A DNA stretch of 64,000 nt from assembly GCA_022763105.1 (NCBI GenBank), contig JALEGK010000022.1, positions 1,198-65,197 on the forward strand. Direction: 5' to 3'. A model generated the notes under the pieces. That model searched no databases. It was not told the DNA's origin and saw only the letters and a list, made by a program, of their open reading frames with translations. Made by a program: the position numbers and the translations under genes. Of the stretch, positions 7,102-33,653 are shown piece by piece (position 1 is the first letter of the stretch; the number at the start of each line of letters is the position of its first letter). This stretch comes from Rickettsiales bacterium (GTDB lineage: Bacteria > Pseudomonadota > Alphaproteobacteria > Rickettsiales > UBA3002).

Positions 7102-7109
7102 TTAATCAC

Positions 7110-8084: not shown

Positions 8085-8109
8085 GAATCAAACGTCCTCT
8101 GACTCGAAG

Positions 8110-9600
8110 CTACACACCGATTGTGAAACATTCAAGCACAGCCTTCGTCAGGCCAAAATATTCCGCGCGAGTTAGCATTTTTGGACGAATACCGTGACAA
8201 ATAAACTCACCTTGTAGCCTTCCCTTGGCATCCAATCCGCTCGCTTTGTAGCTGAATAAGGTTTGGGTAGAAATGACATCTCCTTCGACGCCGCATACTT
8301 CCTCCACCTGAGTCACCTTACGTGTACCGTCACGCATACGTTCAATCTGAACAATGATTTGAAGCGCGCTGGCGATTTGCTGTCTTAGAGAGCCAGATGA
8401 TAGTTTGACCTCGGACATGCCGACCAAATTTTCGATACGAGACAGACAGTCACGTGGGCTGTTGGAGTGAATGGTAGCCATCGAACCATCGTGACCAGTG
8501 TTCATTGCGGTCAGTACGTCGATGACTTCATCACCACGAATCTCACCAAGGATAATGCGGTCTGGTCTCATACGCAGGGCGTTTTTAACGAGCAATCGCT
8601 GCGTGACTTCGCCGCGGCCTTCCATTGATGGTGGACGGGTTTCTAGTCTGAGAACGTGTGGCTGCTGAAGTTGTAATTCCGCAGCATCCTCAATCGTGAC
8701 GATACGCTCGCCGTGGCTAATGCCACCAGAGAGCGCGTTCAGCAGGGTGGTTTTACCACTACCCGTACCACCCGATACGATGATATTCAGGCCGATATGG
8801 GTACATAACTGCAGGAATTTGTACATCTCTTCAGACATGGAGCCGAGCTGCACATAGGCGCTGAGCGGCATTTTGTTCTTTTTGAACTTACGAATGGATA
8901 CCAAGCAGCCATCAAGTGCAAGTGGCGGGATAATCGCGTTAAAACGCGAGCCATCTGGCATGCGGGCATCGACCATTGGCGATGCTTCATCGATGCGGCG
9001 GCCAACGCGCGAGACAATTCGCTGTACGATGGTGAGCAGGTGCTGTTCATCGAGGAACTTCACATCGGTGAGAAAGATTTTACCCTGTTTCTCGATATAG
9101 ACCTGAGAGTGGGTGTTCACCATGATATCGGCGATTTCGTTATCAGCGAGTAGTGGTTCTAGCGGGCCGAAGCCGAAAATTTCATCTAGCGCTTGCGATT
9201 TCAGCGCTGAGATTTGGCTGCCATTCAGTGGCGATGGGATTTCAGATAAGATCTTATCGCAAACACTTAAGACTTTCTTCTTTTGCAACTCTTCATCGAG
9301 TTGGTCTAGTGCGACAAAGTCGACCTGCTTGATAAGCTGGTTCATCAGCTCGTGCTTGGCGTTGTTAAAATCTGGCGTTTCGAGATTTACGTCAACATAG
9401 CTGCTGGTCTCAATCGCCTCACGCTTCATGCCTTCGATGGCTTCGTTGAGGGCGGCGGCATCGACTAAGTCTTTTGACTCGCGCTCTTCTAGCGCGGTGC
9501 TATCGACGGCGACGGGTAAATGTTGTTCAGGCTGTTCTGGTTGTTCTTGAGGTTGCTGCTGTTGTTGTGACGGTTTTTGGTTAGGTTTGCTACCAAACAT
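8110..9600 (-). CDS. cpaF: Tad pilus secretion ATPase CpaF/TadA
   Basis: Walker [40 protein letters not shown] and [14 protein letters not shown] are typical CpaF/VirB11-type motifs. The N-terminus is a low-complexity Q/P/E tract. Confidence 0.93.
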
Positions 9601-9650
9601 AATGACTTCCCTGTTGAATTGGCCGGACGGTAAAACGACAATTTATCGAG

Positions 9651-10808
9651 TTACAAGTGTGCCTGATTCTCAGTAAAACTGCCACCATTTTCTATCGATT
9701 GAGCCACCTCCATCATGCCTGTAGCGAGCTTAGATTTGCCCACTTCGATGATGGTTTTGCCCATATTTTCTGCGTTTACGACGGTTTTAATGTCGTTTGG
9801 CAGATGGAAAGAAATTTTCTTGTTACAGACGCGTTCAAAATCGCGCGCTGACACCCCTTCTTTGAATTTCGCGCCGCTTCGGTTGATGATCACGTCGACA
9901 TGACCTAAATCGATGCCGATTTCGCGCCATACATTGAGTAGGCGAGAGGCGTGGGTAACAGATTTTAGCCAAAGCTGCGCGACCAGAATAATCGAGTCTG
10001 AATTACTGAAAGCGGCTGAAATCCATGGGGACCAGATATGCGGCAGATCAAGAATGACGTAGCGATATTCTGATTTGAGAGCGAGTAGTAAGTCGCGAAT
10101 CATCTCAGGATTCAGATCGGGTAGATATTTGAGCTCGTTAGGCGCGGCGATCAGGTCTAGATAGTCGTTATACTGAACCGCCATGCGCTTAATCAGCGTG
10201 CTGTCGATACCGCGGTCTGGGTGCTCAAACAGCTCTTTAATACCGTAAGGCGAGCCTAGATCGAGGTTCTTACAGACCATGCCGAATTGGTAATCCATAT
10301 CGACCACGATGGTTTTTGCACGGAACTCTCGCGCCAGACAATAAGCGGCATTCAGGGCTACGGTGCTGGAACCATCGCCAGCGGCAGCACTCATAAAGGC
10401 GATTGCGCTGCTATTCGTATTGGAAGAGCTACTAGATGCGCCAATAAGCGCACGGCTTACCTCTTCCATGTTTGGCGGGTAGGTGAAATATTCAGCAATG
10501 CCGCGCTCGATCAATGCGCGATAATATTTGATGTCGTTTACTTGGCCGATGACCACGACTTGCGTGCCAGAGACGCAATGCTCAGACATTTCTTCTAACT
10601 CTGCGAAGACTTCCTGAGAGCGCTCGCCAGTAAACATAGCGATATATTTCGGGGTGTAGCGGTTCGCATCAATGAAGCGCGCTGCATCATATCCATTACC
10701 TACGACGACATTGGCAAATGAGTAGCCAAGCAGATTGGCTAATTGATTTCCTAGGGGGCGCTCATCTTCTGATGAGATGACGACCAGAACCGGACTTTGT
10801 GTATCCAC
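9651..10808 (-). CDS. cpaE: Tad pilus assembly protein CpaE/TadZ (receiver-like N-domain plus atypical ParA/MinD-like domain)
   Basis: 385 aa, in the cpaD-cpaE-cpaF position, with a MinD/ParA-like fold (IVVDMDYQFG, VILDLPH). The Walker A position reads SAAAGDGSSTVALN and has no lysine. Confidence 0.8.
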   Translation of the reverse strand: MDTQSPVLVVISSEDERPLGNQLANLLGYSFANVVVGNGYDAARFIDANRYTPKYIAMFTGERSQEVFAELEEMSEHCVSGTQVVVIGQVNDIKYYRALIERGIAEYFTYPPNMEEVSRALIGASSSSSNTNSSAIAFMSAAAGDGSSTVALNAAYCLAREFRAKTIVVDMDYQFGMVCKNLDLGSPYGIKELFEHPDRGIDSTLIKRMAVQYNDYLDLIAAPNELKYLPDLNPEMIRDLLLALKSEYRYVILDLPHIWSPWISAAFSNSDSIILVAQLWLKSVTHASRLLNVWREIGIDLGHVDVIINRSGAKFKEGVSARDFERVCNKKISFHLPNDIKTVVNAENMGKTIIEVGKSKLATGMMEVAQSIENGGSFTENQAHL

Positions 10809-10833
10809 GCTACAACCTTATACAGCTATAAAG

Positions 10834-11412
10834 TTAGTTAATTTCAGCGTTATCAAGAAGAGAGTCGTCCAAGGTAAATTGCTCGGTTGGCTCCAGATAT
10901 TTTTGATACGCCTTCACAGCTTTATAGGAACTTACCGGATCCATCAAGTTCGGACGCACAAATTGATGCTTATCTGACACCATTTGGACGATGTTTGCCG
11001 CATTTGAGCACCCAAAGCTTGGGTGATTCAGGTTGCTGCCGTTACCAATCCTGTCAATATAGCGGTTTTCGCAGTCACGTGCGAGTACGCGCTCATACAC
11101 CAATGACACAACACTATCGAGTGATGGCACATAAAGAGTGGCAACACCGTATAGGTCTAATACTTCTTGAGCCGCAGAGCAGCGCTCATCTGCTTCTGGG
11201 CAATATAGTTCAGCGCGGGTTGGCTGGTCGTGCTGAATCCAGTCTGCCATTTCATCCAGGGCGACTTCTGATTCAACGGATAGGTTGACCACTTCGGCAG
11301 AGACATCGAGCAGGCTTTCAGGTGCGCCGCGATTGTAATAAGCCGATGTTGGGACATCTGATGAACAAGCAGCCAGAATCAGTAGAGCGGGAGCAAGTAT
11401 GAGATGTTTCAT
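10834..11412 (-). CDS. cpaD: Pilus biogenesis lipoprotein CpaD
   Basis: Lipoprotein signal MKHLILAPALLILAAC. About 190 aa with a GCSNAANIVQMVSD motif, located between the secretin gene and cpaE. The start overlaps the cpaC stop (TAATG). Confidence 0.75.
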   Translation of the reverse strand: MKHLILAPALLILAACSSDVPTSAYYNRGAPESLLDVSAEVVNLSVESEVALDEMADWIQHDQPTRAELYCPEADERCSAAQEVLDLYGVATLYVPSLDSVVSLVYERVLARDCENRYIDRIGNGSNLNHPSFGCSNAANIVQMVSDKHQFVRPNLMDPVSSYKAVKAYQKYLEPTEQFTLDDSLLDNAEIN

Positions 11413-12791
11413 TAGTCTACCATAAACCCGATTGGGCCTTCTAAGCTAGGAGATTGCGACATATTGCTTGCATTGCCAGACAAAGAACCCAAAGCGCCGT
11501 AAAATAGTGACTCCATAGTCGATGCTGGGCGGAAATCGTCTGAAGGCATACGTACATCTGAAGATTTCAACGGATCAACCAGATAAGGCGTTACGGCAAG
11601 AACCAGTTCGGTCTCTTGACGCTCAAAGCTGGTATTGCGGAATAAAGAGCTGAGAATCGGAATCTCGCTCACACCCGGCAGCTGGTTGATGGTGGTGTTT
11701 AGGTTGTCTTGAATCAGGCCTGCAATCATGAAGCTTTCGCCTGGAGCCAGTTCAATAGTGGTGCTCGCACGACGGACATCGAAGGCAGGAACAATAGCGC
11801 CGCCACCGATATCTACGCCATCACCATCGTTACGTTCTGATACTTCTGGCTGCACCTGAATGCGAATGCGGTTTGGAGTAAGAACGAACGGGCGGAAGCG
11901 AACCGACACACCGAAGGTTTTGTAATCTACTGTGATGGTGTCATTTGATTGGGCCACCGGAATTGGCACTTCACCACCGGCTAGGAATTCTGCCTCTTCA
12001 CCCGATAGTGCCACAAGATTTGGCTCAGCCAATACTTTAAGCAAATTGTCTTGCTCGAGCGCATCAATGGTCGCAGAGATAGAATTTTGGCCGCTAGAGT
12101 TGGTGTAAGAAACACCAAGGCTGGTTAAGCCAGCAATGCCGCTGCTTGATAGAATCTGAAATGGTACATCGCCAGAGCCTTTGATGGCATCAAAATCGAT
12201 ACCTAGCTGCTTTAGGGTGCCGCGCTGTACTTCACCAATACGAATACGCAGCATAACCTGCTGGCCGGCGCTTACTTTCATCAGGTTGATGACGTTATTA
12301 TTTTCCATCTTGCTGTCATATTGCTGATCCAATTCTTCATTGGCATCGCGCACAGGATTCAAAAACTGCGTCGCAATTTCTAAAGCAGTATTGGCAGAAG
12401 ATGAGCTGGACACTTCACCGGTTAGCGCAACTTTGGTGTTTACCATTTCAACGCCAATGCGCTCATTTGGCAGGAAGTCATGAAGGGCGCGGCGGATAGC
12501 AGGCAGGTCATAAGTGACCATTACATCCATGTCGCGGATAAGGCGGTTATTCTCATCAAACAAGCGAACAGAGGTTTCGCCTAAGGTCTTTCCAATGATG
12601 GAGAGCTTGTCTTTGCCATGCACATATATATCGGCGATATCCGGATTAGAGACGATGACTTCGCCTAAATCGACAGAAGAGGTGACAATTTCGGAACGGT
12701 TGACGGGAACGTAGAATTTGGTGGTCGCTGCGTTGGCTGAGGCCGCTAGTGCTATAATGAAAAAAGGTACTAATTTTATTGTTTTAAACAT
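11412..12791 (-). CDS. cpaC: Tad pilus outer-membrane secretin CpaC/RcpA
   Basis: Signal peptide, N-terminal pilus-formation domain (IVSNPDIADIYV), and C-terminal secretin domain (LLKVLAEPNLVALSGEEAEFLAGGEVPIP, IPILSSLFR). Confidence 0.92.
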   Translation of the reverse strand: MFKTIKLVPFFIIALAASANAATTKFYVPVNRSEIVTSSVDLGEVIVSNPDIADIYVHGKDKLSIIGKTLGETSVRLFDENNRLIRDMDVMVTYDLPAIRRALHDFLPNERIGVEMVNTKVALTGEVSSSSSANTALEIATQFLNPVRDANEELDQQYDSKMENNNVINLMKVSAGQQVMLRIRIGEVQRGTLKQLGIDFDAIKGSGDVPFQILSSSGIAGLTSLGVSYTNSSGQNSISATIDALEQDNLLKVLAEPNLVALSGEEAEFLAGGEVPIPVAQSNDTITVDYKTFGVSVRFRPFVLTPNRIRIQVQPEVSERNDGDGVDIGGGAIVPAFDVRRASTTIELAPGESFMIAGLIQDNLNTTINQLPGVSEIPILSSLFRNTSFERQETELVLAVTPYLVDPLKSSDVRMPSDDFRPASTMESLFYGALGSLSGNASNMSQSPSLEGPIGFMVD

Positions 12792-12815
12792 TATAGCCCG
12801 GCTATGTTTCCTTCC

Positions 12816-13787
12816 TTAGTTGGAATTAGCGCGGGTGGCAGTGCGTGCCCTTGCTTCCTCCAGTCTAAGTAACGATTCTTCATTCTCAACCTGCGTTCCT
12901 CTGACTACGACTACCGGTATAAATTCTTCGTCATTATTGGCGACCGGAACTTCGTCATCAGACATTGGAACTCCACTAGATTGTGATAAATCACTTTGAC
13001 GTGTAATTGCAACCGTTTCTATGGTTTGCTTGTCGGCAAGTGATCTAAGTGTCAGAGAGACCTTTCCAATTTCTGTAGCTAATTTAAGCCTTTGCGAATC
13101 TTCGGGCGCGACTTCTAGAGAAACCGATCTGGGGATAACTATGCCGCCATCTCGGTTAACGCCAGTAGAGCTGCGCTGATCAACCGCAAGAACGCGCACA
13201 TTCGATAGTAGCGTTTCGGTCACATCTTCATATAGGTTCTTTTGCGTGCGGGCATCTTTCAGGTCACGCTCACGCACACCCTTCTTCAGAATTTCGTGCG
13301 TTACCAATACATCTACGCGGTCGCCTGGGAATACGAAACCGGCGACGCCATCGATCTCATTGGTGCGGATGGTTGCGACGCGCATCCCTTTAGGCAGGTT
13401 GCCTGCAAGGAAGTTTGGATCGTCAGGGTTGACCATCTTGCTCATAATGAATGGTTCGCGTGGTTGGAATGGGGAGCGGGTTACCATGCCCACGAGCGCT
13501 TCACCCTTTTTGTTGCCGACCACGAAGTCTTTAAGAAGTAGGTGCTTCGGCCATGGCTGCACATCAAGCATGTTCTCTTCTACCACGGTTCCAACAGGGA
13601 TAAAGTTGGCGGCGACATACACATCAACGGTTTCGATGCGTGGCTCAGCGCGCTGCTGCACCTGAACTGGGCGGTTTTGTGCGACGATCGGCTTCGCCTT
13701 CTTCTCATCGCTTCCAGAGAGCTTTAGTACCATAAATGCCGCAACAGCAGCGACAAATACAGCGATGACCAGTCCAATCCATTTCAT
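12816..13787 (-). CDS. cpaB: Flp pilus assembly protein CpaB/RcpC
   Basis: N-terminal TM MKWIGLVIAVFVAAVAAFMVL, SAF-like domain, RcpC-like segment (GFVFPGDRVDVLVT). It is the first gene of the operon. Confidence 0.88.
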   Translation of the reverse strand: MKWIGLVIAVFVAAVAAFMVLKLSGSDEKKAKPIVAQNRPVQVQQRAEPRIETVDVYVAANFIPVGTVVEENMLDVQPWPKHLLLKDFVVGNKKGEALVGMVTRSPFQPREPFIMSKMVNPDDPNFLAGNLPKGMRVATIRTNEIDGVAGFVFPGDRVDVLVTHEILKKGVRERDLKDARTQKNLYEDVTETLLSNVRVLAVDQRSSTGVNRDGGIVIPRSVSLEVAPEDSQRLKLATEIGKVSLTLRSLADKQTIETVAITRQSDLSQSSGVPMSDDEVPVANNDEEFIPVVVVRGTQVENEESLLRLEEARARTATRANSN

Positions 13788-21418: not shown

Positions 21419-24154
21419 ATGACGAGCACGGTTCGTTCACTGCTTACACATTTCAGGCAGACCCCCCTACTTTATTGGTTATCCTTTTTATCCGGCGTAT
21501 GCGGCATTGCGTATGAGATTATCTATGCGCGCGTGCTGTCGACCTATTTGGGCGACATGTTTTATGTTAGCGCGTCTATTCTTGCGGTCTTTTTATTCAT
21601 GATCGGATTGGGCGCACTCATCGCCCATCGTTTCTTGAAATATCTCTGGCTGATGGAAGCGCTCATTGGGGTGTTTGCCTTTGCCATGGCCTATATGCAG
21701 ACCATGCCGGACCAGTGGGTGCAATGGTTGGCGGGTGAGGCGAGTGGTCCTTATGAAACCTTGTGGTTGGTGTTCATGTTGATTGGGTTGCCCGCCTGTT
21801 TGATCGGTTTTAGCGTGCCGCTTTTCACGCTCAGCATTCATGCCGAAGAAAAAAATGAGGGGCTGAAAGACTCCTTCAGAACAGTGTATTTATATTATCA
21901 TCTGGGTGCGGTGCTATGCGTGCTTCTGATAGAGTATCTCATCTTCCGTTATTTTGGTATTGGCGCGGCGCTTTGCGTTCTGGGCTGCGTGAATATGTAT
22001 ATTGCGGTACGGCTACGACCTGTTCTCAAAGATTTGCAGATACCCAAGCAAGAATCGGCTGCGAACGTATCGTTTCGGGCCATTAGTGTTTTGGTATTAG
22101 CCAGCACAGCTAGCGGCATGCTGCAGCTTTGGATGCTGAAATTATCGCAGCGTGTGTTTGGCCCGTATCACGAAAACTTCACCATCGTGTTGGTCATCAA
22201 TCTGATTGGCTTGGCGGTGGGTGCGTTCATGTTGCCGCGTATCGCAAAACAGGCGGCTAAATTGTATCGCTATGTTGCCTTCCTCTTGCTGGTCTTTTGC
22301 ATCAATTTGGTGGGTTGGATTTATCTGTGGTCGTATAGCAATATGCTGGCAGATGCGGTCGGGCTGAGTTGGCTACTTAAGCTGAGCTGGATGATTGGCT
22401 TTTCTGCTATGCCGATGATTATGCTTGGCGCAACGATTCCCATTTTGCTTTCGCTGTATCCGAGCAATACCCAAACACCGGGCCGCTATTTGGCGATTGC
22501 ATCTTTTGCAAATGTGGCGGGATATTTACTAAGTTTCTTGGTGCTGAATACCGTGCTGAATGACCCGCAAATGATTGCACTTATTGCGGCGATGGTGCTG
22601 CTTGTTGGTTTGACACTCCAATGGCCGGGTCTGAAAGACACATTAAACTACATTTTCTTTTTTGCGGGTTGCGTGGTGTTGCTAATGAAAGCATGGCCGG
22701 ATGATGTGCTATCGCTTGGTTATACTAATTTAGTGTTTGGTACGTATCTGCAAAACGAAAAGCGGGATTATTTTTATAGCGAACATTACACGCGCTACGA
22801 TAGTCATGTGGATCTGGTTTATACCAATAACCAGAGCGTGAAGTTGAATATCAATGGTTATTCTAGTTTGCATATTCCACTCAATCGCCCGGCGCTGAAT
22901 CAGGAAGTGTTGTATGGTGCGATTCCGGCGATCTACACGCCGAAGCAAAGTAATGCATTGGTGTTGGGTTTAGGCATTGGCGCAACGGCCTATGGTGCAG
23001 CAAGTCTGTTTGAAGAAGTGGATGTGGTGGAAATTAATCCGCTGATGATTGATTTGCAGCCGCGCTTTAAGCAGGTGAATCATGATGTGGTGAGCTGGCC
23101 GCATGTGAATGTGCATTATGAAGATGGGCTGGCATTTATTGCGAAGAAGACCAAGCAATATGATGCGATCATTAACACGGTCACTAGCCCATTATTTTTC
23201 TCATCTGCGAAGCTTTATACCAGTGATTTTATGCGGCTGGCGAAGAAGCGCCTAAAGCCAAATGGCGTCTATACTTTATGGTTTGATGCGCGTGTGACAC
23301 CCAAAGGTCAGGCGATCATTCAGCAGACGATTAAGTCGGTGTTTGCGCATTGTCATTTTGCGCATCTGAATGGTGCGTATACGCAGGCGATTTGCTCTGA
23401 CGCGCCGCTTAATCCAAAGCCAGAATATGTGTTAGATGCGCGCCAAAGCCTGATCGATACATTTAATGCTGAGAAGATGGGGATTTCATTTGATGCGCTC
23501 GTGAACTACCTGATTCTCAATGAGCATGATTTATATGCGAAAGAATGGGCATCGAGATTAAACACCTACGATTTACCAGCGCTTGAATATATTATGTCGG
23601 CGCGCTCTACCAATCAGAATAACTATGCGAAAGATTTGTTTGAAGAGTTAGGCGCACAGTTTGATCAAACTATCCGAGGGTCGCTTGATGAGGCGAAGCT
23701 CGCAGAGCGTTGCTTGGCGTTTTTGATTGTAGGTGGCAGTGATTGTGATGAGAAGCTGGCAGGAGATGGTGCGGTGCCGTCGCGTTTTGTGAAACTGCTT
23801 ATTCATTACATGCCAAATGATAAATCGATTATCTCTAATTTAGTTGATTATTTGCCTAAGCTAGAAGAGGCAGAGCGATGGGATGATATGGTGCTGATTG
23901 GGCGATCGGTATTAAACCAGCCTCACGATTTTTATCACAAAAACCAAAAGAAGATAGTGAGCTACTATGTTGGCGCGCTGATGAGAAAAGGCCAACCAAT
24001 AGAAGACGTGCTGGTTAGTTTGCTCTATGAATCAGGTCCTGCTGATGCGGATTTGCGCGAATTTATGGCAGATGTTGAATCTTACCGAGGCAATGAAGAA
24101 GAGGCGAAAGCACATGCCCAAGCCGCCGCATTATTAAGGCGCGACAATGAGTAA
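21419..24154 (+). CDS. Polytopic membrane protein fused to a spermidine-synthase-like (class I MTase fold) domain and a helical C-terminal region
   Basis: About 430 aa of TM helices, then ALVLGLGIGATAYGA (GxGxG), VDVVEINP and YDAIINTVTSP. The C-terminal ~250 aa is helical and TPR-like. Confidence 0.65.
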   Translation: MTSTVRSLLTHFRQTPLLYWLSFLSGVCGIAYEIIYARVLSTYLGDMFYVSASILAVFLFMIGLGALIAHRFLKYLWLMEALIGVFAFAMAYMQTMPDQWVQWLAGEASGPYETLWLVFMLIGLPACLIGFSVPLFTLSIHAEEKNEGLKDSFRTVYLYYHLGAVLCVLLIEYLIFRYFGIGAALCVLGCVNMYIAVRLRPVLKDLQIPKQESAANVSFRAISVLVLASTASGMLQLWMLKLSQRVFGPYHENFTIVLVINLIGLAVGAFMLPRIAKQAAKLYRYVAFLLLVFCINLVGWIYLWSYSNMLADAVGLSWLLKLSWMIGFSAMPMIMLGATIPILLSLYPSNTQTPGRYLAIASFANVAGYLLSFLVLNTVLNDPQMIALIAAMVLLVGLTLQWPGLKDTLNYIFFFAGCVVLLMKAWPDDVLSLGYTNLVFGTYLQNEKRDYFYSEHYTRYDSHVDLVYTNNQSVKLNINGYSSLHIPLNRPALNQEVLYGAIPAIYTPKQSNALVLGLGIGATAYGAASLFEEVDVVEINPLMIDLQPRFKQVNHDVVSWPHVNVHYEDGLAFIAKKTKQYDAIINTVTSPLFFSSAKLYTSDFMRLAKKRLKPNGVYTLWFDARVTPKGQAIIQQTIKSVFAHCHFAHLNGAYTQAICSDAPLNPKPEYVLDARQSLIDTFNAEKMGISFDALVNYLILNEHDLYAKEWASRLNTYDLPALEYIMSARSTNQNNYAKDLFEELGAQFDQTIRGSLDEAKLAERCLAFLIVGGSDCDEKLAGDGAVPSRFVKLLIHYMPNDKSIISNLVDYLPKLEEAERWDDMVLIGRSVLNQPHDFYHKNQKKIVSYYVGALMRKGQPIEDVLVSLLYESGPADADLREFMADVESYRGNEEEAKAHAQAAALLRRDNE

Positions 24155-25601
24155 TCCTTCAGATGAAACACAAATGTTAGCTGAGAAGCTCAGCTGGCCA
24201 GCACTCATTTTAGGCATGGCTATTGGTCTTGCGATGTTTGTGTCGGGTTTTTCGATTCAGCAACAATTTCTACAAGTCGGACATGAAGATATTGCATTTT
24301 CCTATATGGCAGGTGCGATCATTGCTGCGCTTACCGCAAGGCGAGTACGCGTGAGTATGTGCCATTCACTGATGGCTATTTTCATGCTCTGTTTTACCTG
24401 TTTGTATCTGTTCACCGAGCCTGCCATCTATGATCTGATGCCCGCTCATGCATGCGTCATTATTGTGCCCCTGTTGCTTGGCTATGTTTGCTTTATGGCG
24501 GCATCTGGGGTGGTGTTATTGCTGCATGATGCTCAGTATCAGCAAATGATTTGGGCGGCCTTTTTATTAGGAGCTGCGATTGCGATTGCGGCCGGTAGTT
24601 ATGTGCTTTTACCGATGTTTAGTCTGCATGTCATATTGCTTATTTTGCTGCAGTTGATGTTGCTTGGTTGGTGGTTGCTCAGAGCATATATAAACCGCAG
24701 CATTGATGACGCAAAAACCATTCATTCGTTGAAAGCATTTCTATGTGCTGTGCTTATCGGTTCTTCAATTATTTATGGCGTGAGCGTGATGGCTGCACCT
24801 TATGGTAATTTATGGATGGTCTATGGGTTGAGGCTGGCTGCTTCGCTGCTGTTGCTTGGCTTGGTGTTGTATGTACTGCGCGCACCATTATCTATGATTA
24901 GTAAATATTATGTTTCTAGCGTGCTTGGATTTATGGCGGCAGTTTGTTTGGTCTCATATCTTTACCAACCACCACTTGCGCATCATGACCGTCATATTCG
25001 TGCGCGCATGATACATAGTGTTTTCTCGGAACAATTCTCAGGTGGTGAGAAGGTGGCGCTATGGAATGCTTTGCCGGAAGAATATGATCTGGTTGCGCAA
25101 TATACAGGCGTCAGGCCCGTGGCTTTGTCGGTTGATATGGAGCCGTGTGATGTGGTGATGCTCATGTCATCTTCCTCTTACGACATGCCGGTGGTGCGGT
25201 GGTGGAATCAAGAGAATATCACGCAGCTCTATGATCTGGCTGCGAAGGATGGCCGTGTGATTTTGGCGGCGACCAAACCTATGCTAGATCGCCAGATGAT
25301 GACATTGCTGAACACATTTGAACGTGTGGAATGGCTGCGTGAATCGGATGGGCATTATGTGCTGATGGGCTTTGATTCGAACCGTGATCCGGTGCATCGC
25401 ATCAGAGAAATATCTGACGCATTAAAGGCGCGCCGTGCTGAGATGGGTGTTCGCTCCACACAAGAAGAAATTGCACGTTGGATGGATAGTCGCGAATTAC
25501 CGTCCTCTTACCGCGCGGCAAAACTGCTGAGCAGGCTACAACCTGCCATGGCGTTTACATTTATAAGTGATAAGGCTGAAGCAGCAGAGGAAACGAAGTA
25601 A
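24147..25601 (+). CDS. Polytopic membrane protein with a soluble C-terminal domain; function unknown
   Basis: About 280 aa of TM helices plus a soluble domain of about 200 aa. The start overlaps the upstream stop by 8 nt, which suggests translational coupling. Confidence 0.5.
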   Translation: MSNPSDETQMLAEKLSWPALILGMAIGLAMFVSGFSIQQQFLQVGHEDIAFSYMAGAIIAALTARRVRVSMCHSLMAIFMLCFTCLYLFTEPAIYDLMPAHACVIIVPLLLGYVCFMAASGVVLLLHDAQYQQMIWAAFLLGAAIAIAAGSYVLLPMFSLHVILLILLQLMLLGWWLLRAYINRSIDDAKTIHSLKAFLCAVLIGSSIIYGVSVMAAPYGNLWMVYGLRLAASLLLLGLVLYVLRAPLSMISKYYVSSVLGFMAAVCLVSYLYQPPLAHHDRHIRARMIHSVFSEQFSGGEKVALWNALPEEYDLVAQYTGVRPVALSVDMEPCDVVMLMSSSSYDMPVVRWWNQENITQLYDLAAKDGRVILAATKPMLDRQMMTLLNTFERVEWLRESDGHYVLMGFDSNRDPVHRIREISDALKARRAEMGVRSTQEEIARWMDSRELPSSYRAAKLLSRLQPAMAFTFISDKAEAAEETK

Positions 25602-27855: not shown

Positions 27856-29214
27856 ATGCGCTTATCACTAATTCACCACAGTATTTTGCCTTTAATGTTA
27901 TTCTTTTCATGTTTTAGTGTGCCTGCTTTAGCGACAGACAATAATAGCCTTTTGCTGCTTATCGATAGCTCTAACTCTATGTATGAAGAGTTGGGTGGCG
28001 AGAAGAAAATAGATGCGGTGAAAGAGACAATTGAGGCGTTGGCCCCCTCTTTTCCAAATGATTTAGATATTCGTGTGGCTTCTTATGGTCGCGACGCACG
28101 CAATTCTTGTTACACAATTAAGTCTTTTTCCCCTTTTGTAGATGGAAAAAACACATCGGGCTTAGAAAAGGCTCTAGAGGAATTTATTACACCTAAACAT
28201 CGCAAGCCCATTGAGTCGGCATTAGAGCCTGCCGTATTCGCCGCAGAAGAAGGACATGAGCAAGGTAGTAACCATGTGGTGGTGATTACGGATGGCTTAG
28301 AGGCATGTGCGATCAATGTCTGTGATGAAGCAAGACGGTTAAGTTTAAGCAATCCGCGTTTGAAGATTCATGCGGTCGGCTATGCCATCGATATGAAAGC
28401 GTATCGTCCGCATATTATTCAATGTATTGCGGATGATGGTGCCGGGCAGTTCATCAATACGCATAGCAAGCAAGAGCTATCAGAGGCGCTAAAGACGATC
28501 ATATCGTCAATTACAAAGCCTGAGACGGATAAATCGCCCAAAAAATGGCATTTGCTTGAGGAAATGACCTTTTCTGACGCCGATTCAATGAAAAACTGGC
28601 GCATAATGGACCCTGTTGAGGGTCAGCACACAGTAAAAGAGGGTGAATTGGTGTTGATAGCGCCTGAAAACGCCCATACAGATGATATTTCCCCCAAAAA
28701 CCGACTAGAATTAGTGAAAAAGCTTCCAAATGGTGATTGGAAGATCAGCACACGCATCGATATGGAGTTTATTACCACCCATGAGGCATTTGAAATAGGC
28801 ATTAGGGATAAAGAGGGGAATTACGTGGCGGCAAGCTTTTTGTCGCGCGGATTTGCTCCGGCCACGGTTATGTTGGCCGTTACCAGCAGCGACAATGGTG
28901 CCGTTGTAAGCAAGGAACGCCAAATGTTTCGTAATGTTCTGACAGGTTGGCAGGGAACGAGGAAAATGGCAGCGGAGCGCATGCCGTTTGATTTGGAGTT
29001 GATCCGAAAGAATGATCGCTATTTCGCGCGCGCCTTATCTGCCCAAAATGGGCGCTATCTCTTTGAAACAGAAGAGATAAAACTCGATCTAAAGCCGGAA
29101 TCAATCTATTTGTCGTTATATCAGCGCCCGAATGACGTTCATCATATACCGCGTAAGAAACATCAAACTATTTCAACGTTAAAATGGGTTAAAATTTTTA
29201 ATATTACCGACTAA
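27856..29214 (+). CDS. Secreted von Willebrand factor type A (vWA) domain protein with an unassigned beta-rich C-terminal domain
   Basis: AAGGAGG RBS 8 nt before the ATG at 27856. Signal peptide MRLSLIHHSILPLMLFFSCFSVPALA. MIDAS LLLLIDSSNSM (DxSxS), VVVITDGLE. The ORF stays open to 27742. Confidence 0.8.
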   Translation: MRLSLIHHSILPLMLFFSCFSVPALATDNNSLLLLIDSSNSMYEELGGEKKIDAVKETIEALAPSFPNDLDIRVASYGRDARNSCYTIKSFSPFVDGKNTSGLEKALEEFITPKHRKPIESALEPAVFAAEEGHEQGSNHVVVITDGLEACAINVCDEARRLSLSNPRLKIHAVGYAIDMKAYRPHIIQCIADDGAGQFINTHSKQELSEALKTIISSITKPETDKSPKKWHLLEEMTFSDADSMKNWRIMDPVEGQHTVKEGELVLIAPENAHTDDISPKNRLELVKKLPNGDWKISTRIDMEFITTHEAFEIGIRDKEGNYVAASFLSRGFAPATVMLAVTSSDNGAVVSKERQMFRNVLTGWQGTRKMAAERMPFDLELIRKNDRYFARALSAQNGRYLFETEEIKLDLKPESIYLSLYQRPNDVHHIPRKKHQTISTLKWVKIFNITD

Positions 29215-29227
29215 ATAAGTCGGTAAT
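29203..29227 (+). terminator. Perfect 9-bp inverted repeat spanning the vWA gene stop (weak, AT-rich hairpin)
   Basis: attaccgac / taaataa / gtcggtaat, followed only by ttg. Confidence 0.25.
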
Positions 29228-29292
29228 TTGCTGATAAATATACTGATGCCCTGCGCGCATTAATAAACTAATTCAATAATTTTGCTAAAATT

Positions 29293-29307
29293 TTAATGAT
29301 TAGTTAA
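29293..29307. promoter_or_regulatory. Perfect TTAA-N7-TTAA (CtrA-type box) about 66 nt upstream of the Hint-protein start
   Basis: Read directly: TTAA(29293-29296) tgattag TTAA(29304-29307), in the AT-rich 158-nt spacer. Confidence 0.35.
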
Positions 29308-29372
29308 CGAAAATCATGTAGTGTAGCGTAAATCATTTTTCGAAATGCCGTAAACGGTTAACGGAGACGACT

Positions 29373-30569
29373 ATGCAACATGTAATTAAACACGTATTTT
29401 TATCAGTTATTCTGCTGATCGTGGCTTCCACCACGGTGTATGCAAATAATTCTAACGTTCAAGTAACGCGCATTCCTTGGCAGACGTCAGGCTATCAGGC
29501 GACTGACTCTTATTGGAATGAACCACCATTATCTTGTTTGCCTTGGCGCGCAGGAAAGTGGACTAGCGAAAGTGACAAACCATTATGTCACTGTCCGCCA
29601 GCTTCTATGTGTCCGAGCAGTGTGGCAGATTGGAATGCTAGCCCAATCGTTCCACCTTATATGCTGACGGCATGTTGTAATATTTCATGTCCGCGCGGTA
29701 CCGTTGCCGATATTGACCCTTGTGGTCGTACTGAGACGGTTAATACTGGTTCAGAAGGCCAGGGCGCAGACCCTAATGCCCCAACGCAAGCTGAGCGTGT
29801 GGCGGCACGTATGAACACCAACATTCAGAAAGCCTTAGCAGAAGGCGTGATGAGTGTCGCAAATGAATGTCAATCGTGTCAGGATACGGAAGGCCCTGAA
29901 GAGGGTGATCCAAAAGACGTTGATCCGATTGGCTGTGAAGGCTTGAGCGGTTGTGAAGTGACCCCTCAGGATGCTTACACCATTTGTATTCCAACCTTGA
30001 GCTGTACACCAATTTCAGAAAATCCATGTGATAAGGTCACCGATTTGACCGATCCACATCGTGATCCTTCGCTACAGGCTACAACCGACATCTCTTGTAC
30101 GGTGGCGGAAGCATTCTGTATTCTTGAAGGTACCGAGATTGTGCTGGTTGATGGTTCTAAGAAGAACATCGAAGACATCAAGCTTGGTGACAAACTCCGC
30201 AGTGGTGCGAAGAACGTGGTGATGGTTGAGGCTGTCTCTAAGGTGATTCGTAAGAAGGGCGCGCTACACTCTATCAATGGTAGCCGTGCATTCATTACTG
30301 CAGAACACCCTATCATGACCACTAAAGGTTGGAAGGCCATTGCTCCTAATAGTGACCTGGATCACAGTATTAAGATTCTAGGTGCGCTAGAAGTGGGCGA
30401 TGAAATCGTAACAGCAGACGGCACAGAAACCGTCAAGACGATTGAAGCGAAAGACCTTGAGTCTGATGCTGGTGTTGCCACTTACAACCTGATTGTGAAT
30501 GGTGATGGAACTTTTGTGGCTGACGGCGTTGTCGTCAAAAGCATGAGAAAATCAGCAATTTACTACTAA
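29373..30569 (+). CDS. Secreted protein: signal peptide, 16-Cys N-terminal domain, C-terminal Hint (Hedgehog/intein-like, bacterial intein-like) domain
   Basis: Signal peptide ...ASTTVYA|NN. Hint blocks: C249-ILEGTEIVLVDGSKKNIEDIKLGD (block A), FITAEHPIMTTKGWKAIA (TxxH block B), TYNLIVNGDGTFVADGVVVKS (C-terminal block, no His-Asn). Only about 8 residues follow. Confidence 0.8.
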   Translation: MQHVIKHVFLSVILLIVASTTVYANNSNVQVTRIPWQTSGYQATDSYWNEPPLSCLPWRAGKWTSESDKPLCHCPPASMCPSSVADWNASPIVPPYMLTACCNISCPRGTVADIDPCGRTETVNTGSEGQGADPNAPTQAERVAARMNTNIQKALAEGVMSVANECQSCQDTEGPEEGDPKDVDPIGCEGLSGCEVTPQDAYTICIPTLSCTPISENPCDKVTDLTDPHRDPSLQATTDISCTVAEAFCILEGTEIVLVDGSKKNIEDIKLGDKLRSGAKNVVMVEAVSKVIRKKGALHSINGSRAFITAEHPIMTTKGWKAIAPNSDLDHSIKILGALEVGDEIVTADGTETVKTIEAKDLESDAGVATYNLIVNGDGTFVADGVVVKSMRKSAIYY

Positions 30570-30592
30570 TCGTTGCAACTAGGAGATAGACC

Positions 30593-31999
30593 ATGAAACG
30601 TATCAACTTCTTCAAAAACGACCTAGGGAGCATTGCTCTCATGGGTGCTGCAGCGATTACATTGTTAGTTGTTGCGGCCGGTGTCACCATTGACGCTGCA
30701 AAATATGTCACTGTAAAATCCAAATTCCGTAATGCTGTGGATGCTGCTTTGCTTTCATCAGCTGCGGTTGCCTGGGAATATGAAAATGAATTGGATGAGG
30801 TGGCAACCCGCTTCTTCCATGCCAATTTCCCTGAGCAATATATGGGTTCTTTCAACCTCAGCGCAGTTCATGTTGAGCATAATGCCCAAGAGTTTTCTTG
30901 GACCATTCGCATGGACGGCGATGTTAACACTACCTTTGGTGCTTTGGTCGGGTTTGACTCGATCAGCATGAGCCACCAGGCGCGTGTTGAGGTGGATACC
31001 AGCGCCCATGTGGATGCTGTGTTCACACTTGATACTTCGGCATCGATGTGTACGACGACCCGTCGCGCACAACGTGACGATACCGATGAATATGCCATTG
31101 AGTATGTGCCAGATGGTGAATGTAAGAAGCTAGAAGCAGCTAAGGAGGCGTTGACCTATATTGCAGATCACGCATTCCCATCGTCTGCTACAGAAGCTGG
31201 CCCAATCTTTAATATGGGTGTTGTACCATTCAACCATAAAGTACGTTTGCCGCGTCAGGATAGTATTCCAGCGCCAATGCGTGCGGTTGAGGCTCGTAAC
31301 CCTATCGAAGGCGATTTTGGTAATAATGTGACCTTTACCGTGAATACGGCAGGTGCCAATTATTACAGCAATCTGTCTGATGCAAACCCGCTTTCAGAAG
31401 TCATTTCACTGACTCGTATGAATAGCGCGGCTGCTAAGGAAGATCTGAAAGACAAAATCGATGATATTTTCCAAGGGCCACACGGTCTGGGTTGGACCCG
31501 CTCTAATATTGCGGCTTATACCGCAGCTCTGATGCTTGATCCTGACTATTACCGTCACTTTGATGGTGAGCGTCCAGGTGAGTTTCTACCAGAGAATGAG
31601 AAGATCGTTGTGATGATGACTGATGGTGCCAATATTGGTTGCTGCTGGTTCTCACACCCATACGGTACCTTTGAAAACCAGTATCTGTATCTATACGAAG
31701 CTGATTTGGCTCACCTGACCGGTCTGGATAAGGCTAGTGGCTGGGCACGTCAGTGGAAAACACAGTACAACATTCCTGAGGAAGGTCTGTGTAAGAAGAT
31801 GAAGGAACGAGGTGTTATCATCTATTCTATTATCTTTGACGTAGAAGATGGCGATCCAGGTGGGCAGCAGATTAAAGAAGCCTACAAGGATTGTGCAAGT
31901 AATGACCAATTCTTCTTCGATGTGAAATCGGATGAAGACCTCAAGAACGCATATCGTACGATTGCTAGTTCGTTCATGCCACTGCGCTTGAGCTACTAA
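30593..31999 (+). CDS. TadG-like protein: TadE/G-like N-terminal anchor plus vWA domain
   Basis: N-terminus MKRINFFKNDLGSIALMGAAAITLLVVAAGVTIDAAKY (Tad_N/TadE-G-like). MIDAS AVFTLDTSASM and VVMMTDGAN. Lies 23 nt after the Hint gene and has its own RBS (AGGAGA). Confidence 0.8.
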   Translation: MKRINFFKNDLGSIALMGAAAITLLVVAAGVTIDAAKYVTVKSKFRNAVDAALLSSAAVAWEYENELDEVATRFFHANFPEQYMGSFNLSAVHVEHNAQEFSWTIRMDGDVNTTFGALVGFDSISMSHQARVEVDTSAHVDAVFTLDTSASMCTTTRRAQRDDTDEYAIEYVPDGECKKLEAAKEALTYIADHAFPSSATEAGPIFNMGVVPFNHKVRLPRQDSIPAPMRAVEARNPIEGDFGNNVTFTVNTAGANYYSNLSDANPLSEVISLTRMNSAAAKEDLKDKIDDIFQGPHGLGWTRSNIAAYTAALMLDPDYYRHFDGERPGEFLPENEKIVVMMTDGANIGCCWFSHPYGTFENQYLYLYEADLAHLTGLDKASGWARQWKTQYNIPEEGLCKKMKERGVIIYSIIFDVEDGDPGGQQIKEAYKDCASNDQFFFDVKSDEDLKNAYRTIASSFMPLRLSY

Positions 32000-32022: not shown

Positions 32023-32048
32023 GGGGAGCCAAGCGGCTCCCCTTTTTT
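32023..32048 (+). terminator. Rho-independent terminator of the Hint/TadG-like transcript
   Basis: ggggagcc / aagc / ggctcccc followed by tttttt, 24 nt after the stop. Confidence 0.85.
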
Positions 32049-32095: not shown

Positions 32096-32172
32096 TGGCG
32101 GTCTCGGCGCGATTCGAACGCGCGGCCTTCGCCTTCGGAGGGCGACGCTCTATCCAGCTGAGCTACGAGACC
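32096..32172 (-). tRNA. tRNA-Arg (anticodon CCG)
   Basis: The reverse complement folds as a cloverleaf: GGTCTCG/CGAGACC acceptor stem, GCTC..GAGC D arm, TCGCC-CTCCGAA-GGCGA anticodon arm, GCGCG-TTCGAAT-CGCGC T arm, discriminator G, encoded CCA. Confidence 0.92.
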
Positions 32173-32217: not shown

Positions 32218-32598
32218 TTAGTAGCCCGATGCGTCGGCAAAGAAATTCTCAGCCCATTCTTCTTCGGCAAATTCTACATCATAGAGCAGCATGGTTTCTG
32301 GCATGTCTTGCTGGTTTGATGGGGCGGCTTCTTGCTGCGCGATGGTCGTGGCTTCTGGAGCGGTTGGCGGGTTGCCGACGGCACCGATAAGAATAAATAG
32401 ACCCACCACAGAGGCCATGACGACATAGCGCATGGATGGCACATATAGCCACGCTTTGAGCAGTCTTAACGGCGCAAAGAGAGGGAATTGCCTGCGAGGA
32501 TTCTCCTTAGCAAGCTGCACGATTCTACTGACCGCTGCGTCATCTGCCGCAGGGATATAGAGGGAGCGTAGCATCTCATGTGTCGATTTATTATCCAT
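32218..32598 (-). CDS. Putative anti-sigma factor (single-pass membrane protein downstream of the ECF sigma gene)
   Basis: 126 aa with a central TM (YVVMASVVGLFILIGAV). Overlaps the sigma gene stop by 8 nt. Confidence 0.55.
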   Translation of the reverse strand: MDNKSTHEMLRSLYIPAADDAAVSRIVQLAKENPRRQFPLFAPLRLLKAWLYVPSMRYVVMASVVGLFILIGAVGNPPTAPEATTIAQQEAAPSNQQDMPETMLLYDVEFAEEEWAENFFADASGY

Positions 32599-33157
32599 AC
32601 CGTTCCATCCGCTCTGTCACCACCTGACTGCGCAACTGCGTGCGTGCACGTGAAAGCAGTGATTCCAGCGCTTTAACTGATATACCCATCATATCAGCGA
32701 TCTGTTTTTGAGACAAATCCTCAAAGTAGAACAGATTCACCGCAATGCGCTGACGTTCGGGTAGCTCTTTTAATACGCTTCTAAGTGCCATTTGCCTTTG
32801 TTTGTCTATTTGTTCATCTTCTGCCGTGGGGCCTTCATCTGGAATGTCATCCTTCAGCTCACTGACGCTGCGGTTACGTTTGCGTAGTAAATCCACGGCC
32901 TGATTGTATAAAATCCGGTAAAACCACGTAGTAAAGCGGGCTTTCTTCTTTGCCTTCCAGCGCGCCTTTCCTGACCATATTTTCATAAATGCTTCTTGAA
33001 CGACGTCTTCCGCATCTTCTGCGTGTAGCACCCAACGATAAACCTGGCGGTAGAATCGCTGGTGGTGGCGAGAAACCAGGGTTTCAAACGCTCTCACCTC
33101 GCCTGCATGGATAAAATCCATGAGGCTTTCATCAGGCATATCCTTGAATGCTAACAC
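32591..33157 (-). CDS. ECF-type RNA polymerase sigma-70 family factor
   Basis: Region 2 (DAEDVVQEAFMKIW, FTTWFYRILYN) and region 4 (LPERQRIAVNLFYFEDLSQKQIADMMGISVKALESLLSRAR). Confidence 0.9.
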   Translation of the reverse strand: MLAFKDMPDESLMDFIHAGEVRAFETLVSRHHQRFYRQVYRWVLHAEDAEDVVQEAFMKIWSGKARWKAKKKARFTTWFYRILYNQAVDLLRKRNRSVSELKDDIPDEGPTAEDEQIDKQRQMALRSVLKELPERQRIAVNLFYFEDLSQKQIADMMGISVKALESLLSRARTQLRSQVVTERMERYG

Positions 33158-33169
33158 TAAATCGACCGC

Positions 33170-33526
33170 CTATTCACCCGGTTCTGGGTGATGACCACCG
33201 CCATGTGGTGGTTTATGGCCTTTGAACTTCTTGCGACGTTCCATTTTCTGTTCCACATGTTTGATTTTCTCATCATCTGACATGCTTTCCCAGCGTTCTT
33301 CCATTTTTTCGAGCCGTTTTTGACGTTTCTCTTCAATGGTTTGGAGCTTCTCTTCCTTGCTCATTTTTTCCCATTTTTCTTTGCGCTCTTTATGGAATGC
33401 TGCGCGTTCTTCAGGTGACATGTTCTTTATTTTCTCGCGCATGCCGCCTTCGTGATGTTCTGCATAGGCTGGGGCTGCATTTAGCGCCAATACAGAGCAT
33501 GTTAGTATCAGTAGATGTTTTAGCAT
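33170..33526 (-). CDS. Periplasmic Glu/Lys-rich repeat protein with His-rich termini
   Basis: GGAGGA RBS, then the ATG at 33526. Signal peptide MLKHLLILTCSVLALNAAPAYA. Mature protein starts EHHEGG, carries three MS(x)EE(K/R) repeats, and ends HGGGHHPEPGE. The ORF stays open to 33619. Confidence 0.6.
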   Translation of the reverse strand: MLKHLLILTCSVLALNAAPAYAEHHEGGMREKIKNMSPEERAAFHKERKEKWEKMSKEEKLQTIEEKRQKRLEKMEERWESMSDDEKIKHVEQKMERRKKFKGHKPPHGGGHHPEPGE

Positions 33527-33653
33527 CAGATCCTCCTTAGTGTTGTATCTGTAATACGATGCCCATAAAGAATTCCGTCGCATTAAATGCGAAAAAAGAG
33601 CGCTTTGCAATCCTGACATCTTCCGCCATAGTGTTCTGGGGGCTTTAGACTAG

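Follow-up and report, generated by a model that had tools for sequence, protein, structure and literature searches.

A conserved Hint-TadG gene pair as a probable detached tip cassette of a Tad pilus, with an accessory subunit that would cleave or transfer its own N-terminal cargo

TadE/F/G-type minor pilins form a tip complex in which the TadG module is outermost, and several interchangeable tip clusters, detached from the core genes, are possible in one genome (PMC12075869). The Sec-exported non-pilins PilC/PilY1 dock on PilK via their last ~10 residues, whereas CpaL/TadG provides the docking strand in cis (PMC13533445). The origin of Tad tip functions is a current question; the TadE/F/G 'tips', CpaL and the strand-addition docking of PilC/PilY1 were described only in 2025-2026. 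Here, we analyzed a stretch of 64,000 nucleotides from a Rickettsiales bacterium (assembly GCA_022763105.1, contig JALEGK010000022.1, positions 1,198 to 65,197 of the forward strand), which is referred to as the window throughout. It contains a Tad core operon and, at a distance from it, three consecutive genes designated g1, g2 and g3. We focus on g2, whose Cys-rich product ends in a Hint domain, and on g3, which encodes a TadG-like protein with a von Willebrand factor A (vWA) domain. Most likely, these two genes are a detached Tad tip cassette, in which the accessory subunit g2 cleaves or transfers its own N-terminal cargo.

The chemistry of Hint domains has been described in other settings. 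The BIL2 domain forms isopeptide bonds between the ε-amino group of lysine and a C-terminus without ATP (PMC8616854). Hedgehog processing in the endoplasmic reticulum requires a free Cys (PMC3051819), and Hint domains are common in polymorphic toxins (PMC3482391). Burglin (2008) mentions bacterial proteins that are secreted and carry conserved cysteines ahead of a Hint-like domain at the C-terminus, giving neither context nor function; these proteins may or may not belong to the g2 family. Our literature search for Hint, intein or Hedgehog domains linked with TadG, CpaL or Tad pili found no paper, in line with an earlier reading of the window from its sequence alone (hereafter, the first-pass annotation), which had regarded a Hint protein as an undescribed partner of Tad or vWA tip proteins. 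The parts of the system are already known, and the novelty lies in the obligate pairing of g2 with g3, the C-terminal tail of g2 and the chemistry implied on the tip of a type IV filament.

The coordinates of all features are summarized in Table 1. The three plus-strand open reading frames (ORFs) were found as the first-pass annotation had called them, and its statements that g2 and g3 lie 23 nt apart (g2 stop to g3 start), have separate ribosome binding sites and end at a strong terminator proved correct. The terminator has a folding energy of -28.8 kcal/mol (z = -6.6), which none of 200 shuffled sequences equalled; a consensus scan for promoters and terminators missed it, and folding was used to check it instead.

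Table 1. Positions of the g1, g2 and g3 genes, the parts of g2 and other features in the window
Feature	Position	Strand	Details
g1	27856-29214	+	ATG start, upstream AAGGAGG; 452 aa
g2	29373-30569	+	upstream GGAG; 398 aa
g2 N-terminal disulfide-rich module, aa 48-112	29514-29708	+	from family alignments
g2 Hint domain, aa 249-390	30117-30542	+	from AlphaFold2 (AF2), Foldseek and profiles; Cys1 codon 30117-30119
g2 C-terminal tail MRKSAIYY, aa 391-398	30543-30566	+	from family alignment
g3	30593-31999	+	upstream AGGAG; 468 aa
Intrinsic terminator closing the g2-g3 operon	32023-32048	+	hairpin, then T-run
tRNA-Arg(CCG), convergent on the g2-g3 terminator	32096-32172	-	
TTAA-N7-TTAA box, g1-g2 intergenic	29293-29307	+	no functional support seen
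Tad core operon: cpaB, cpaC (secretin), cpaD, cpaE/tadZ, cpaF/tadA, tadB, tadC	6142-13787	-	Pfam RcpC, Secretin, Pilus_CpaD, AAA_31, T2SSE, T2SSF x2
Orphan N-methyl pilin-like ORF, 281 aa	19798-20643	-	KQAGFSLLELSFVLIVFGAIAG; Pfam N_methyl 0.0034, below cut-off

We examined the pairing of the two genes by searching a hidden Markov model of the Hint family against the six-frame ORFs of every g3 locus, the loci (given below by L numbers) being found from either gene. A Hint-family ORF lies directly upstream, on the same strand, of every g3-family gene at 21 distinct loci (the window and 20 others), so that the adjacency of g2 and g3, whose conservation the first-pass annotation had asked about, held in 21/21 cases. 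The gap between the Hint stop and the TadG start ranges from -17 to +74 nt over these 21 distinct pairs, and look-ups of L100 and L102 displayed the same pairing. For g3, we obtained ~45 full-length relatives with 33-60% identity, a few of which are named 'Flp pilus assembly protein TadG'. A profile scan with g3 of one genome per GTDB species detected 13 loci, which come from metagenome-assembled genomes (MAGs) of uncultured Alphaproteobacteria or 'Rickettsiales' and from one 'Pseudomonadota' MAG.

The two genes also diverge together. Hint and TadG proteins have correlated identity matrices (Mantel r = 0.63), with none of 5000 permutations as high, and paralogous Hint-TadG pairs inside one MAG co-diverge, which indicates that both genes are duplicated together and evolve jointly. 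A single genome may hold several cassettes: MAG PL25a_bin.132 contains those of L015, L018, L021 and L023, the last of these twice. A distant TadG (L101, P0053), with 29% identity over one third of g3, is accompanied by TadE genes and has no Hint neighbour; thus, the Hint association is specific to the TadG family of g3. The g2-g3 cassette may be a small island that has moved horizontally.

The genes around the related cassettes are those of Tad minor pilins. Pairs of TadE or TadE-like genes flank the cassette at L004, L006, L011, L013, L016, L017, L019, L024, L025 and L100, and in at least 10 loci the flanking proteins carry canonical G|xxxxE(F/Y) motifs. The farther g2 relatives at L004 and L006/7 adjoin genes for TadE or TadE-like and TadG-like proteins; at L010, a TadG fragment lies downstream of the g2 relative, and N-methyl pseudopilin genes stand on the flanks of this relative. 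No tad core genes were found next to the tip cassettes of L017 and L021. The conserved unit is g2 followed by g3, usually arranged as TadE-TadF-Hint-TadG. In these respects, the relatives of g3 resemble the Myxococcus 'Tips' (PMC12075869), since they stand beside TadE/TadF, are detached from the core and are sometimes present in multiple copies per genome.

The predicted g3 protein consists of an N-terminal helix (aa 10-58), a pilin-like sheet (aa 87-134) and a vWA domain (aa 139-460). Its AF2 model (pLDDT 82.8, pTM 0.78) shows a three-stranded sheet at aa 87-134 and a last strand at aa 464-466, and the Foldseek neighbours of this model are SpaC, PitA, RrgA, GBS104 and the modular vWA pilin PilB of S. 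sanguinis. The metal-ion-dependent adhesion site (MIDAS) comprises D147-T-S149-A-S151 (DTSAS) and T343-D344; among 35 family members, S151 and T343 never vary, while D147, S149 and D344 are almost invariant. The family alignment further contains six conserved cysteines and the invariant lysines K179, K216 and K337. The profile search of g3 itself gave a weak C-terminal vWA signal, and 15/35 family members match Pfam VWA. The Pfam Tad model is matched by 26/35 members (best 2e-8). The TadE/G-like N-terminus and the DTSAS-bearing vWA domain that the first-pass annotation had assigned to g3 are thus borne out, the former at family level and with a sub-cut-off match (18.2 bits) in the window copy, whose aa 12-58 align with Pfam Tad (PF13400).

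These results agree with g3 being a modular minor pilin of the TadG/CpaL class that has a vWA domain as its head. Like TadG, CpaL and KilN, g3 begins with a TadG-type hydrophobic helix (PF13400), which is followed by a small sheet of pilin type and a large module in the C-terminal part; its conserved end, ...LRLSY (family consensus SF(L)xLR(I/L)xY), is modelled as a strand. In the TadG/CpaL class, an extreme C-terminal strand is described as completing the N-terminal pilin-like sheet (Ellison 2026). In contrast to them, the g3 family is always accompanied by an upstream Hint gene, and no such partner is mentioned in the TadG/CpaL/KilN literature that we found. A MIDAS-containing vWA domain on a pilus subunit, as in the g3 model, is also seen in the vWA tip adhesins of other pili (S. 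sanguinis PilB and the sortase-pilus proteins SpaC, RrgA, GBS104 and PitA); however, these belong to other pilus systems, have no homology to g3 beyond the vWA fold and lack a Hint partner.

The g2 protein is a member of the Hint superfamily. The profile searches proposed along with the first-pass annotation returned VWA for g1, Vint/Hint for g2 and sub-cut-off Tad for g3. For g2, matches were obtained to Vint (7e-6), Hom_end_hint (1e-3) and an NCBIfam intein model (4e-7), as well as a weak match to AXH. The Vint match scores 26.4 bits against a gathering score of 27 and covers model positions 2-71 of 166. Profile matches to PDB entries are BIL domains and mini-inteins. AF2 gave pLDDT values of 80-96 over aa 250-390, and Foldseek with this domain yielded 51 PDB matches at E <= 1e-3, every one a Hint domain, headed by BIL2 6y75 (8e-12), 2lwy, mini-inteins, Vint 8r2c and Hedgehog 1at0. 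Entry 6y75 is the BIL2 domain of the Tetrahymena BUBL1 locus, and the BIL domain of C. thermocellum is also among the best matches. The first-pass annotation had described g2 as a 16-Cys region with a C-terminal Hint domain, and this description stands: the protein has 16 Cys plus Cys1, its Hint fold is confirmed and both Cys1 and TxxH are conserved.

The g2 family is laid out as a signal peptide, a conserved disulfide-rich module (hereafter, the N-module), a variable region of ~100-300 aa, the Hint domain and an 8-residue tail. A signal peptide is predicted at ~aa 1-24 of g2 (...VYA|NN) and in most family members. The N-module, which most members possess, has the motif W-x3-P-L-x-C-L-P-x-R-A-x2-W ... 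C-H-C-P-P-x3-C-P ... C-C-x3-C-P-x-G, in which W48, P52, L53, C55, P57, R59, A60, W63, C72, H73, C74, P75, P76, C80 and P81 are invariant and C106, P107 and G109 nearly invariant. The family is small and sharply bounded, with clear catalytic residues. Only seven proteins among 5.8 billion share words with g2, and HMMER on 1.84 billion representatives retrieved 7713 Hint relatives; ~25-40 clusters (50% identity) among these representatives match g2 over the whole span that starts with the N-module and ends with the tail. The remaining strong HMMER matches are giants made of tandem Hint units; these end in HNK and lack the tail. In the nearest Hint outgroup (P0061, P0062, P0064 and P0085; up to 4119 aa), three to seven such units are arranged head-to-tail, the ...HNK of one abutting the Cys of the next.

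The predicted scissile bond of g2 is F248|C249, and block B is T309-A-E-H312. All 64 recognisable family sequences have Cys1, and TxxH takes the conserved form T-x-(E/D)-H-P. Ahead of the scissile bond, R-E-G predominates (R in 40, E in 36 and G in 42 of the 64). At the other end, the Hint domain closes with VVK(G/S), VVKS in the window, followed by Phe or Met at +1, and no terminal Asn after the Hint domain was found in the g2 family. Because both the terminal Asn and a +1 nucleophile are absent, splicing and C-terminal cleavage are excluded for the family. A Hint domain that has Cys1 and TxxH and lacks the terminal Asn can activate only its N-terminal junction, as a thioester. The conservation of Cys1 and TxxH makes self-cleavage at the N-terminal junction of g2 plausible, as judged from the sequences.

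The distribution of cysteines is consistent with this possibility. The cysteines that lie between the N-module and Cys1 are even in number in 48 of 50 proteins (8, 10, 12, 14, 16, 18 or 22), and none of the 50 has a cysteine after Cys1 in the Hint domain, so that Cys1 would be the single unpaired thiol. At the level of sequence, this parity supports export of the protein and catalytic use of Cys1. We also considered a redox trap, in which a conserved Cys 7-20 residues upstream would be paired with Cys1; the even count in 48/50 makes a dedicated partner Cys unlikely.

Comparison with the described Hint classes showed that g2 is not an intein, an A-type BIL domain, a Hog or Vint protein or a PT-HINT toxin, because it lacks a defining feature of each. 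With Hedgehog/Hog, g2 shares the order of signal peptide, Cys-rich secreted cargo and C-terminal Hint domain, and with Hedgehog and BIL domains the family has in common Cys1, TxxH, Gly at -1 and the reactivity of the N-terminal junction only. Processing in an oxidising compartment, with the catalytic Cys left free, is described for Hedgehog (PMC3051819) and would apply to g2 as well. However, the sterol- or adduct-recognition region of Hog is absent from g2, whose Hint domain is followed by just eight residues, and its cargo module has no relationship to Hedge or ubiquitin-like domains. The C-terminal His-Asn (Gln/Asp) and the +1 Cys/Ser/Thr of inteins and A-type BIL domains are missing, and the g2 family also lacks the His-Asn end of BIL-A, BIL2 and the tandem-Hint proteins. 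Vint (PF14623; Burglin, 2008) is the best Pfam match of g2 and likewise has a functional link between vWA and Hint; however, vWA, Vwaint and Vint are fused there in one cytoplasmic eukaryotic polypeptide, whereas here vWA and Hint reside on separate proteins predicted to be exported. Unlike PT-HINT toxins, g2 has its Hint domain at the extreme C-terminus and is followed by a TadG-vWA gene, not by a toxin domain or immunity gene. The family thus offers a bacterial case of a secreted Cys-rich cargo with C-terminal Hint and of a vWA-Hint link, which bears on the origins of Hog and Vint.

The tail of g2 has the C-terminal consensus F-x-x-(V/M)-(Q/E)-(I/M)-x-Y, kept in ~60/67 family sequences; in one of the family alignments, I396 and Y398 are invariant. 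Hydrophobic residues alternate along the tail, and pLDDT values fall below 50 for residues 394-398 in the monomer model. A tail-like ending of the form phi-x-phi-x-Y is common to the g2 family and the g3 family (...LR(I/L)xY). The tail is a candidate docking beta-strand. Similar to PilC/PilY1 (and MshQ), g2 is a predicted Sec-exported non-pilin that stands beside minor-pilin genes and has a conserved short C-terminal end. In contrast to PilY1, g2 has no sequence or fold similarity to it (no PilY1-related Pfam match), is much smaller and ends in a Hint domain; moreover, docking by its tail is hypothetical, and in Tad the strand is reported to be given in cis by CpaL. By analogy, we propose that g2 works like PilC/PilY1 without being a member of the PilY1 family.

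Taken together, we consider it rather probable that g2-g3 is a conserved two-gene cassette that forms part of the tip of a Tad (Flp) pilus and in which g2 autoprocesses its cargo. The pairing suggests that a pilus tip is loaded or armed via protein self-cleavage. In such a tip, the vWA/MIDAS head of g3 would be located at the distal end of the pilus. The g2 protein would be exported by Sec to the periplasm, where its N-terminal cysteines would all be disulfide-bonded and Cys1 alone would remain free. The Hint domain would then perform an N-to-S acyl shift at X|Cys1 (F248|C249 in the window, usually R-E-G|C), the Cys-rich cargo would be held as a thioester, and resolution by water or by another nucleophile would cut the cargo off or pass it on. 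We further suppose that g2 joins the periplasmic TadE/TadF/TadG initiation complex, as PilC/PilY1 does with T4a minor pilins; its mode of docking is a guess made by analogy, for which the 8-residue tail would be the best strand candidate. The cassette would be one of several interchangeable tip modules scattered in these genomes, and it would be served by the tad core operon of the window. The first-pass annotation had proposed the three genes as a pseudopilin or tip module of that operon; the idea of a tip module gains from the TadG-like family of g3, its position beside TadE/TadF elsewhere and its detachment, while the trio itself is not a conserved unit.

Alternatively, the Hint domain could simply be a single-use self-protease that is discarded after maturation, with the N-module binding TadG, for instance its vWA head, as a tip adhesin or cap. 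In favour of this, conservation is as strong in the N-module as in the Hint domain, while the region between them is variable. The two parts also occur as separate ORFs: L016 (1190-2962) is split at a poly-Gly tract into an N-module ORF of 247 aa and a Hint ORF of 339 aa with its own hydrophobic N-terminus, and this split may be genuine rather than an artefact of assembly because P0098 (335 aa), which represents an independent cluster, is laid out like this second ORF. In addition, a 104-aa fragment that consists only of the N-module follows the L100 cluster. However, maturation alone leaves the conserved 8-residue tail, absent from other Hint domains, unexplained, and the members at L023, L019 (4906) and elsewhere keep the pairing of Hint and TadG without an N-module. 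This explanation is possible but, in our judgment, doubtful.

A second alternative is that the thioester is resolved by a Lys or another nucleophile on TadG, another tip subunit or the target surface, leaving the cargo linked by an isopeptide or ester bond. Such a ligation, in the periplasm or at the tip, would proceed without ATP, similar to BIL2/BUBL or to the attachment of cholesterol to Hedgehog. The closest solved structure to the Hint domain of g2 is BIL2 of T. thermophila BUBL1. The conserved R, E and G before the scissile bond point in the same direction: cleavage chemistry alone needs none of them, and their conservation suggests recognition of the new C-terminus. The three invariant lysines of g3 might serve as acceptors, and strict pairing with co-divergence would fit a dedicated donor and acceptor. 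In contrast, the terminal Asn of BIL2 is missing from the g2 family, the -1 residue in the clade of the window is F and not G, and unequal gene numbers argue against a simple 1:1 ligation. At L100 (3941-11327), the order TadE-TadE-Hint-Hint-TadGvWA-Hint comprises three Hint genes and one TadG, and L011 has one Hint gene and two TadG genes. We therefore regard covalent loading as unlikely. At a similarly low level of confidence, the Hint protein may be pictured as a single-use, ATP-independent 'dispenser' of the tip, anchored by its tail on TadE/F/G and covalently transferring the thioester-held cargo; the acceptor of that cargo, on an equally speculative footing, would be either TadG or a molecule of the contacted surface or host.

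Several observations weigh against a self-processing Tad tip cassette. The clade of the window departs from the family in that its junction is EAF|C where the family has REG|C, and its tail MRKSAIYY deviates from the family's FxxVxIHY. The N-terminal half of g2, which would be the cargo, was poorly modelled by AF2, and the Tad match of the window g3 (E = 0.0032) remains under the 22.3-bit cut-off. No flp, tadE or tadF was found in the window, and none of its Pfam-scanned ORFs is a prepilin peptidase. An orphan Hint-family gene (L008 5584-7708 / L009) is not adjoined by TadG. Finally, a Hint paralogue at L023 (3213-4379) lacks Cys1 and the block B His and is still paired with TadG, so that catalysis is not always needed; this protein looks like a degenerate or repurposed copy.

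The L023 paralogue would agree with a Hint domain that is catalytically silent and acts in binding or as a scaffold only, g2 remaining intact as a PilY1-like tip protein. Non-catalytic, AXH-like Hint folds exist, and the weak AXH match of g2 may be seen in this light. However, if there is no catalysis, it is difficult to account for the presence of Cys1 in every recognisable sequence, the conserved TxxH and the strictly even number of other cysteines, and we consider a silent Hint domain very unlikely.

The absence of any pilin, TadE or TadF gene near the cassette in the window, together with the lack in g3 of the Gly-x4-Glu prepilin motif of TadE/F, raises the question of whether a pilus is involved at all. 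In that case, g3 could be a periplasmic vWA protein anchored in the inner membrane with g2 as its ligand or substrate, or g2 could resemble a polymorphic toxin released by its Hint domain, as polymorphic toxins often carry such domains. However, the cassette has TadE/TadF genes as neighbours at 10 or more loci, and the fold of g3 resembles those of modular pilins and tip adhesins. There is neither a toxin domain after the Hint domain nor an immunity-like small gene, and the terminal Asn for C-terminal release is lacking. A function unrelated to pili is accordingly judged highly improbable.

If g2 is a self-processing tip subunit, as we prefer, it would be a new kind of tip-associated subunit with Hedgehog/intein chemistry. 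Firing of the Hint domain in the periplasm or at the tip would provide Gram-negatives with energy-free extracytoplasmic cutting, release or covalent attachment, and such Hint activity on pili was not known before. Should TadG prove to be the acceptor, this would be the first tip on a type IV filament built by isopeptide or ester bonds. The dispenser, if true, would parallel, outside the bacterial cell, the cholesteroylation of Hedgehog and the ubiquitin-like conjugation of BUBL.

The Tad core operon of the window is flanked by uvrB and guaA and lies ~14 kb from g1 and ~17 kb from g3; it is presumed to be the assembly machine of the cassette. The UvrB protein encoded in the window has 75-79% identity to those of the same uncultured alphaproteobacterial MAGs that contain the g2/g3 relatives. 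The first-pass annotation had noted that this operon has no pilin, prepilin peptidase or tadE/F/G next to it. Indeed, neither flp nor tadE/F/G was found adjoining the operon, and the part of that statement on prepilin peptidase rests on the lack of a match among the Pfam-scanned ORFs of the window, no search aimed at this enzyme having been made. Regular expressions and phmmer with TadE, TadF and Flp from related loci detected no Flp/TadE-type pilin or pseudopilin anywhere in the 64 kb. As flp, tadE, tadF and a prepilin peptidase match are missing, the completeness of the tad system in the window cannot be shown, and the cassette differs from its relatives, and from TadG loci, in having no adjoining TadE/TadF. 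The search yielded only the orphan N-methyl pilin-like ORF of Table 1, which is located between an ABC ATPase gene and sodB, with no T4P (type IV pilus) or T2SS (type II secretion system) genes nearby; its likeness to the N-methyl proteins of L010 is confined to the N-terminal helix.

The first gene, g1, encodes a protein with a predicted signal peptide at ~aa 1-26 (cleavage ...ALA|TD), a vWA domain at aa 32-209 (Pfam VWA, E = 9.9e-8) and a beta-sandwich at ~aa 236-452. In the PDB sequence search, it gave only weak matches to vWA domains of the BatA/BatB type. The first-pass annotation could not assign the C-terminal beta-rich domain; it is in fact ConA-like, with a GH43_C2 match (E = 4.5e-5) in the L005 orthologue. 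The MIDAS described there as intact is DSSNS..TD in the window, and it reads DxSSK..SG in both orthologues, so that the motif holds for the window copy only. We rejected the three-gene trio as a conserved unit: two full-length g2 relatives with ~50% identity (L001-3 and L005) keep the trio with the g1-like gene reversed, and orthologues of g1 are limited to these loci. The linkage of the module, as first read, therefore reduces to the g2-g3 adjacency, and g1, confined to the nearest clade and on the opposite strand there, was demoted to a clade-specific neighbour. It is a lineage-specific secreted vWA and ConA-like (lectin-like) protein that may cooperate with the cassette.

A spacer of 158 nt separates g1 from g2, and a hairpin spans the g1 stop codon; g1 is probably its own transcription unit. 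The TTAA-N7-TTAA box that the first-pass annotation placed upstream is present in this spacer. As a regulatory site it was dropped, since it is not enriched: the window has three matches against 1.15 expected, and at least three occurred in 10 of 100 shuffled sequences.

Some further observations concern the surroundings of the related genes. The L100 contig shares its sample of origin with L001 and has a similar coverage; an RTX/M12-like metalloprotease gene is located upstream of its cluster, whose vicinity also includes genes for a GGDEF response regulator and a sigma-54 activator. Downstream of the orphan Hint gene of L008/L009 is a gene for an HtrA-like protease, and ArdC-like and MPTase-PolyVal genes, which are typical of mobile elements, are found in its vicinity. 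Both Hint proteins of L023, which belong to tandem Hint-TadG pairs, have no N-module and no usual tail and end in ...TNDFVETDATQ.

In the window, the segment 28001-30000 has the lowest GC content (0.449, against ~0.49). The module adjoins tRNA-Arg(CCG), whereas the orthologous trio of L001/L005 adjoins a tRNA U5-methyltransferase gene. Beyond the tRNA gene, which stands between them, an operon on the minus strand (32218-33619) is convergent with the tip cassette. It encodes an extracytoplasmic function (ECF) sigma factor of 188 aa (Sigma70_r2/r4_2), preceded by the gene of a Lys/Glu-rich exported protein of 149 aa; an ORF of 126 aa, downstream of the sigma factor gene and overlapping it, may encode a putative anti-sigma factor. 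On the other side, at 21419-25601 on the plus strand, a protein of 911 aa with a central spermidine-synthase-like domain is encoded by a gene that overlaps an ORF of 484 aa without a Pfam match.

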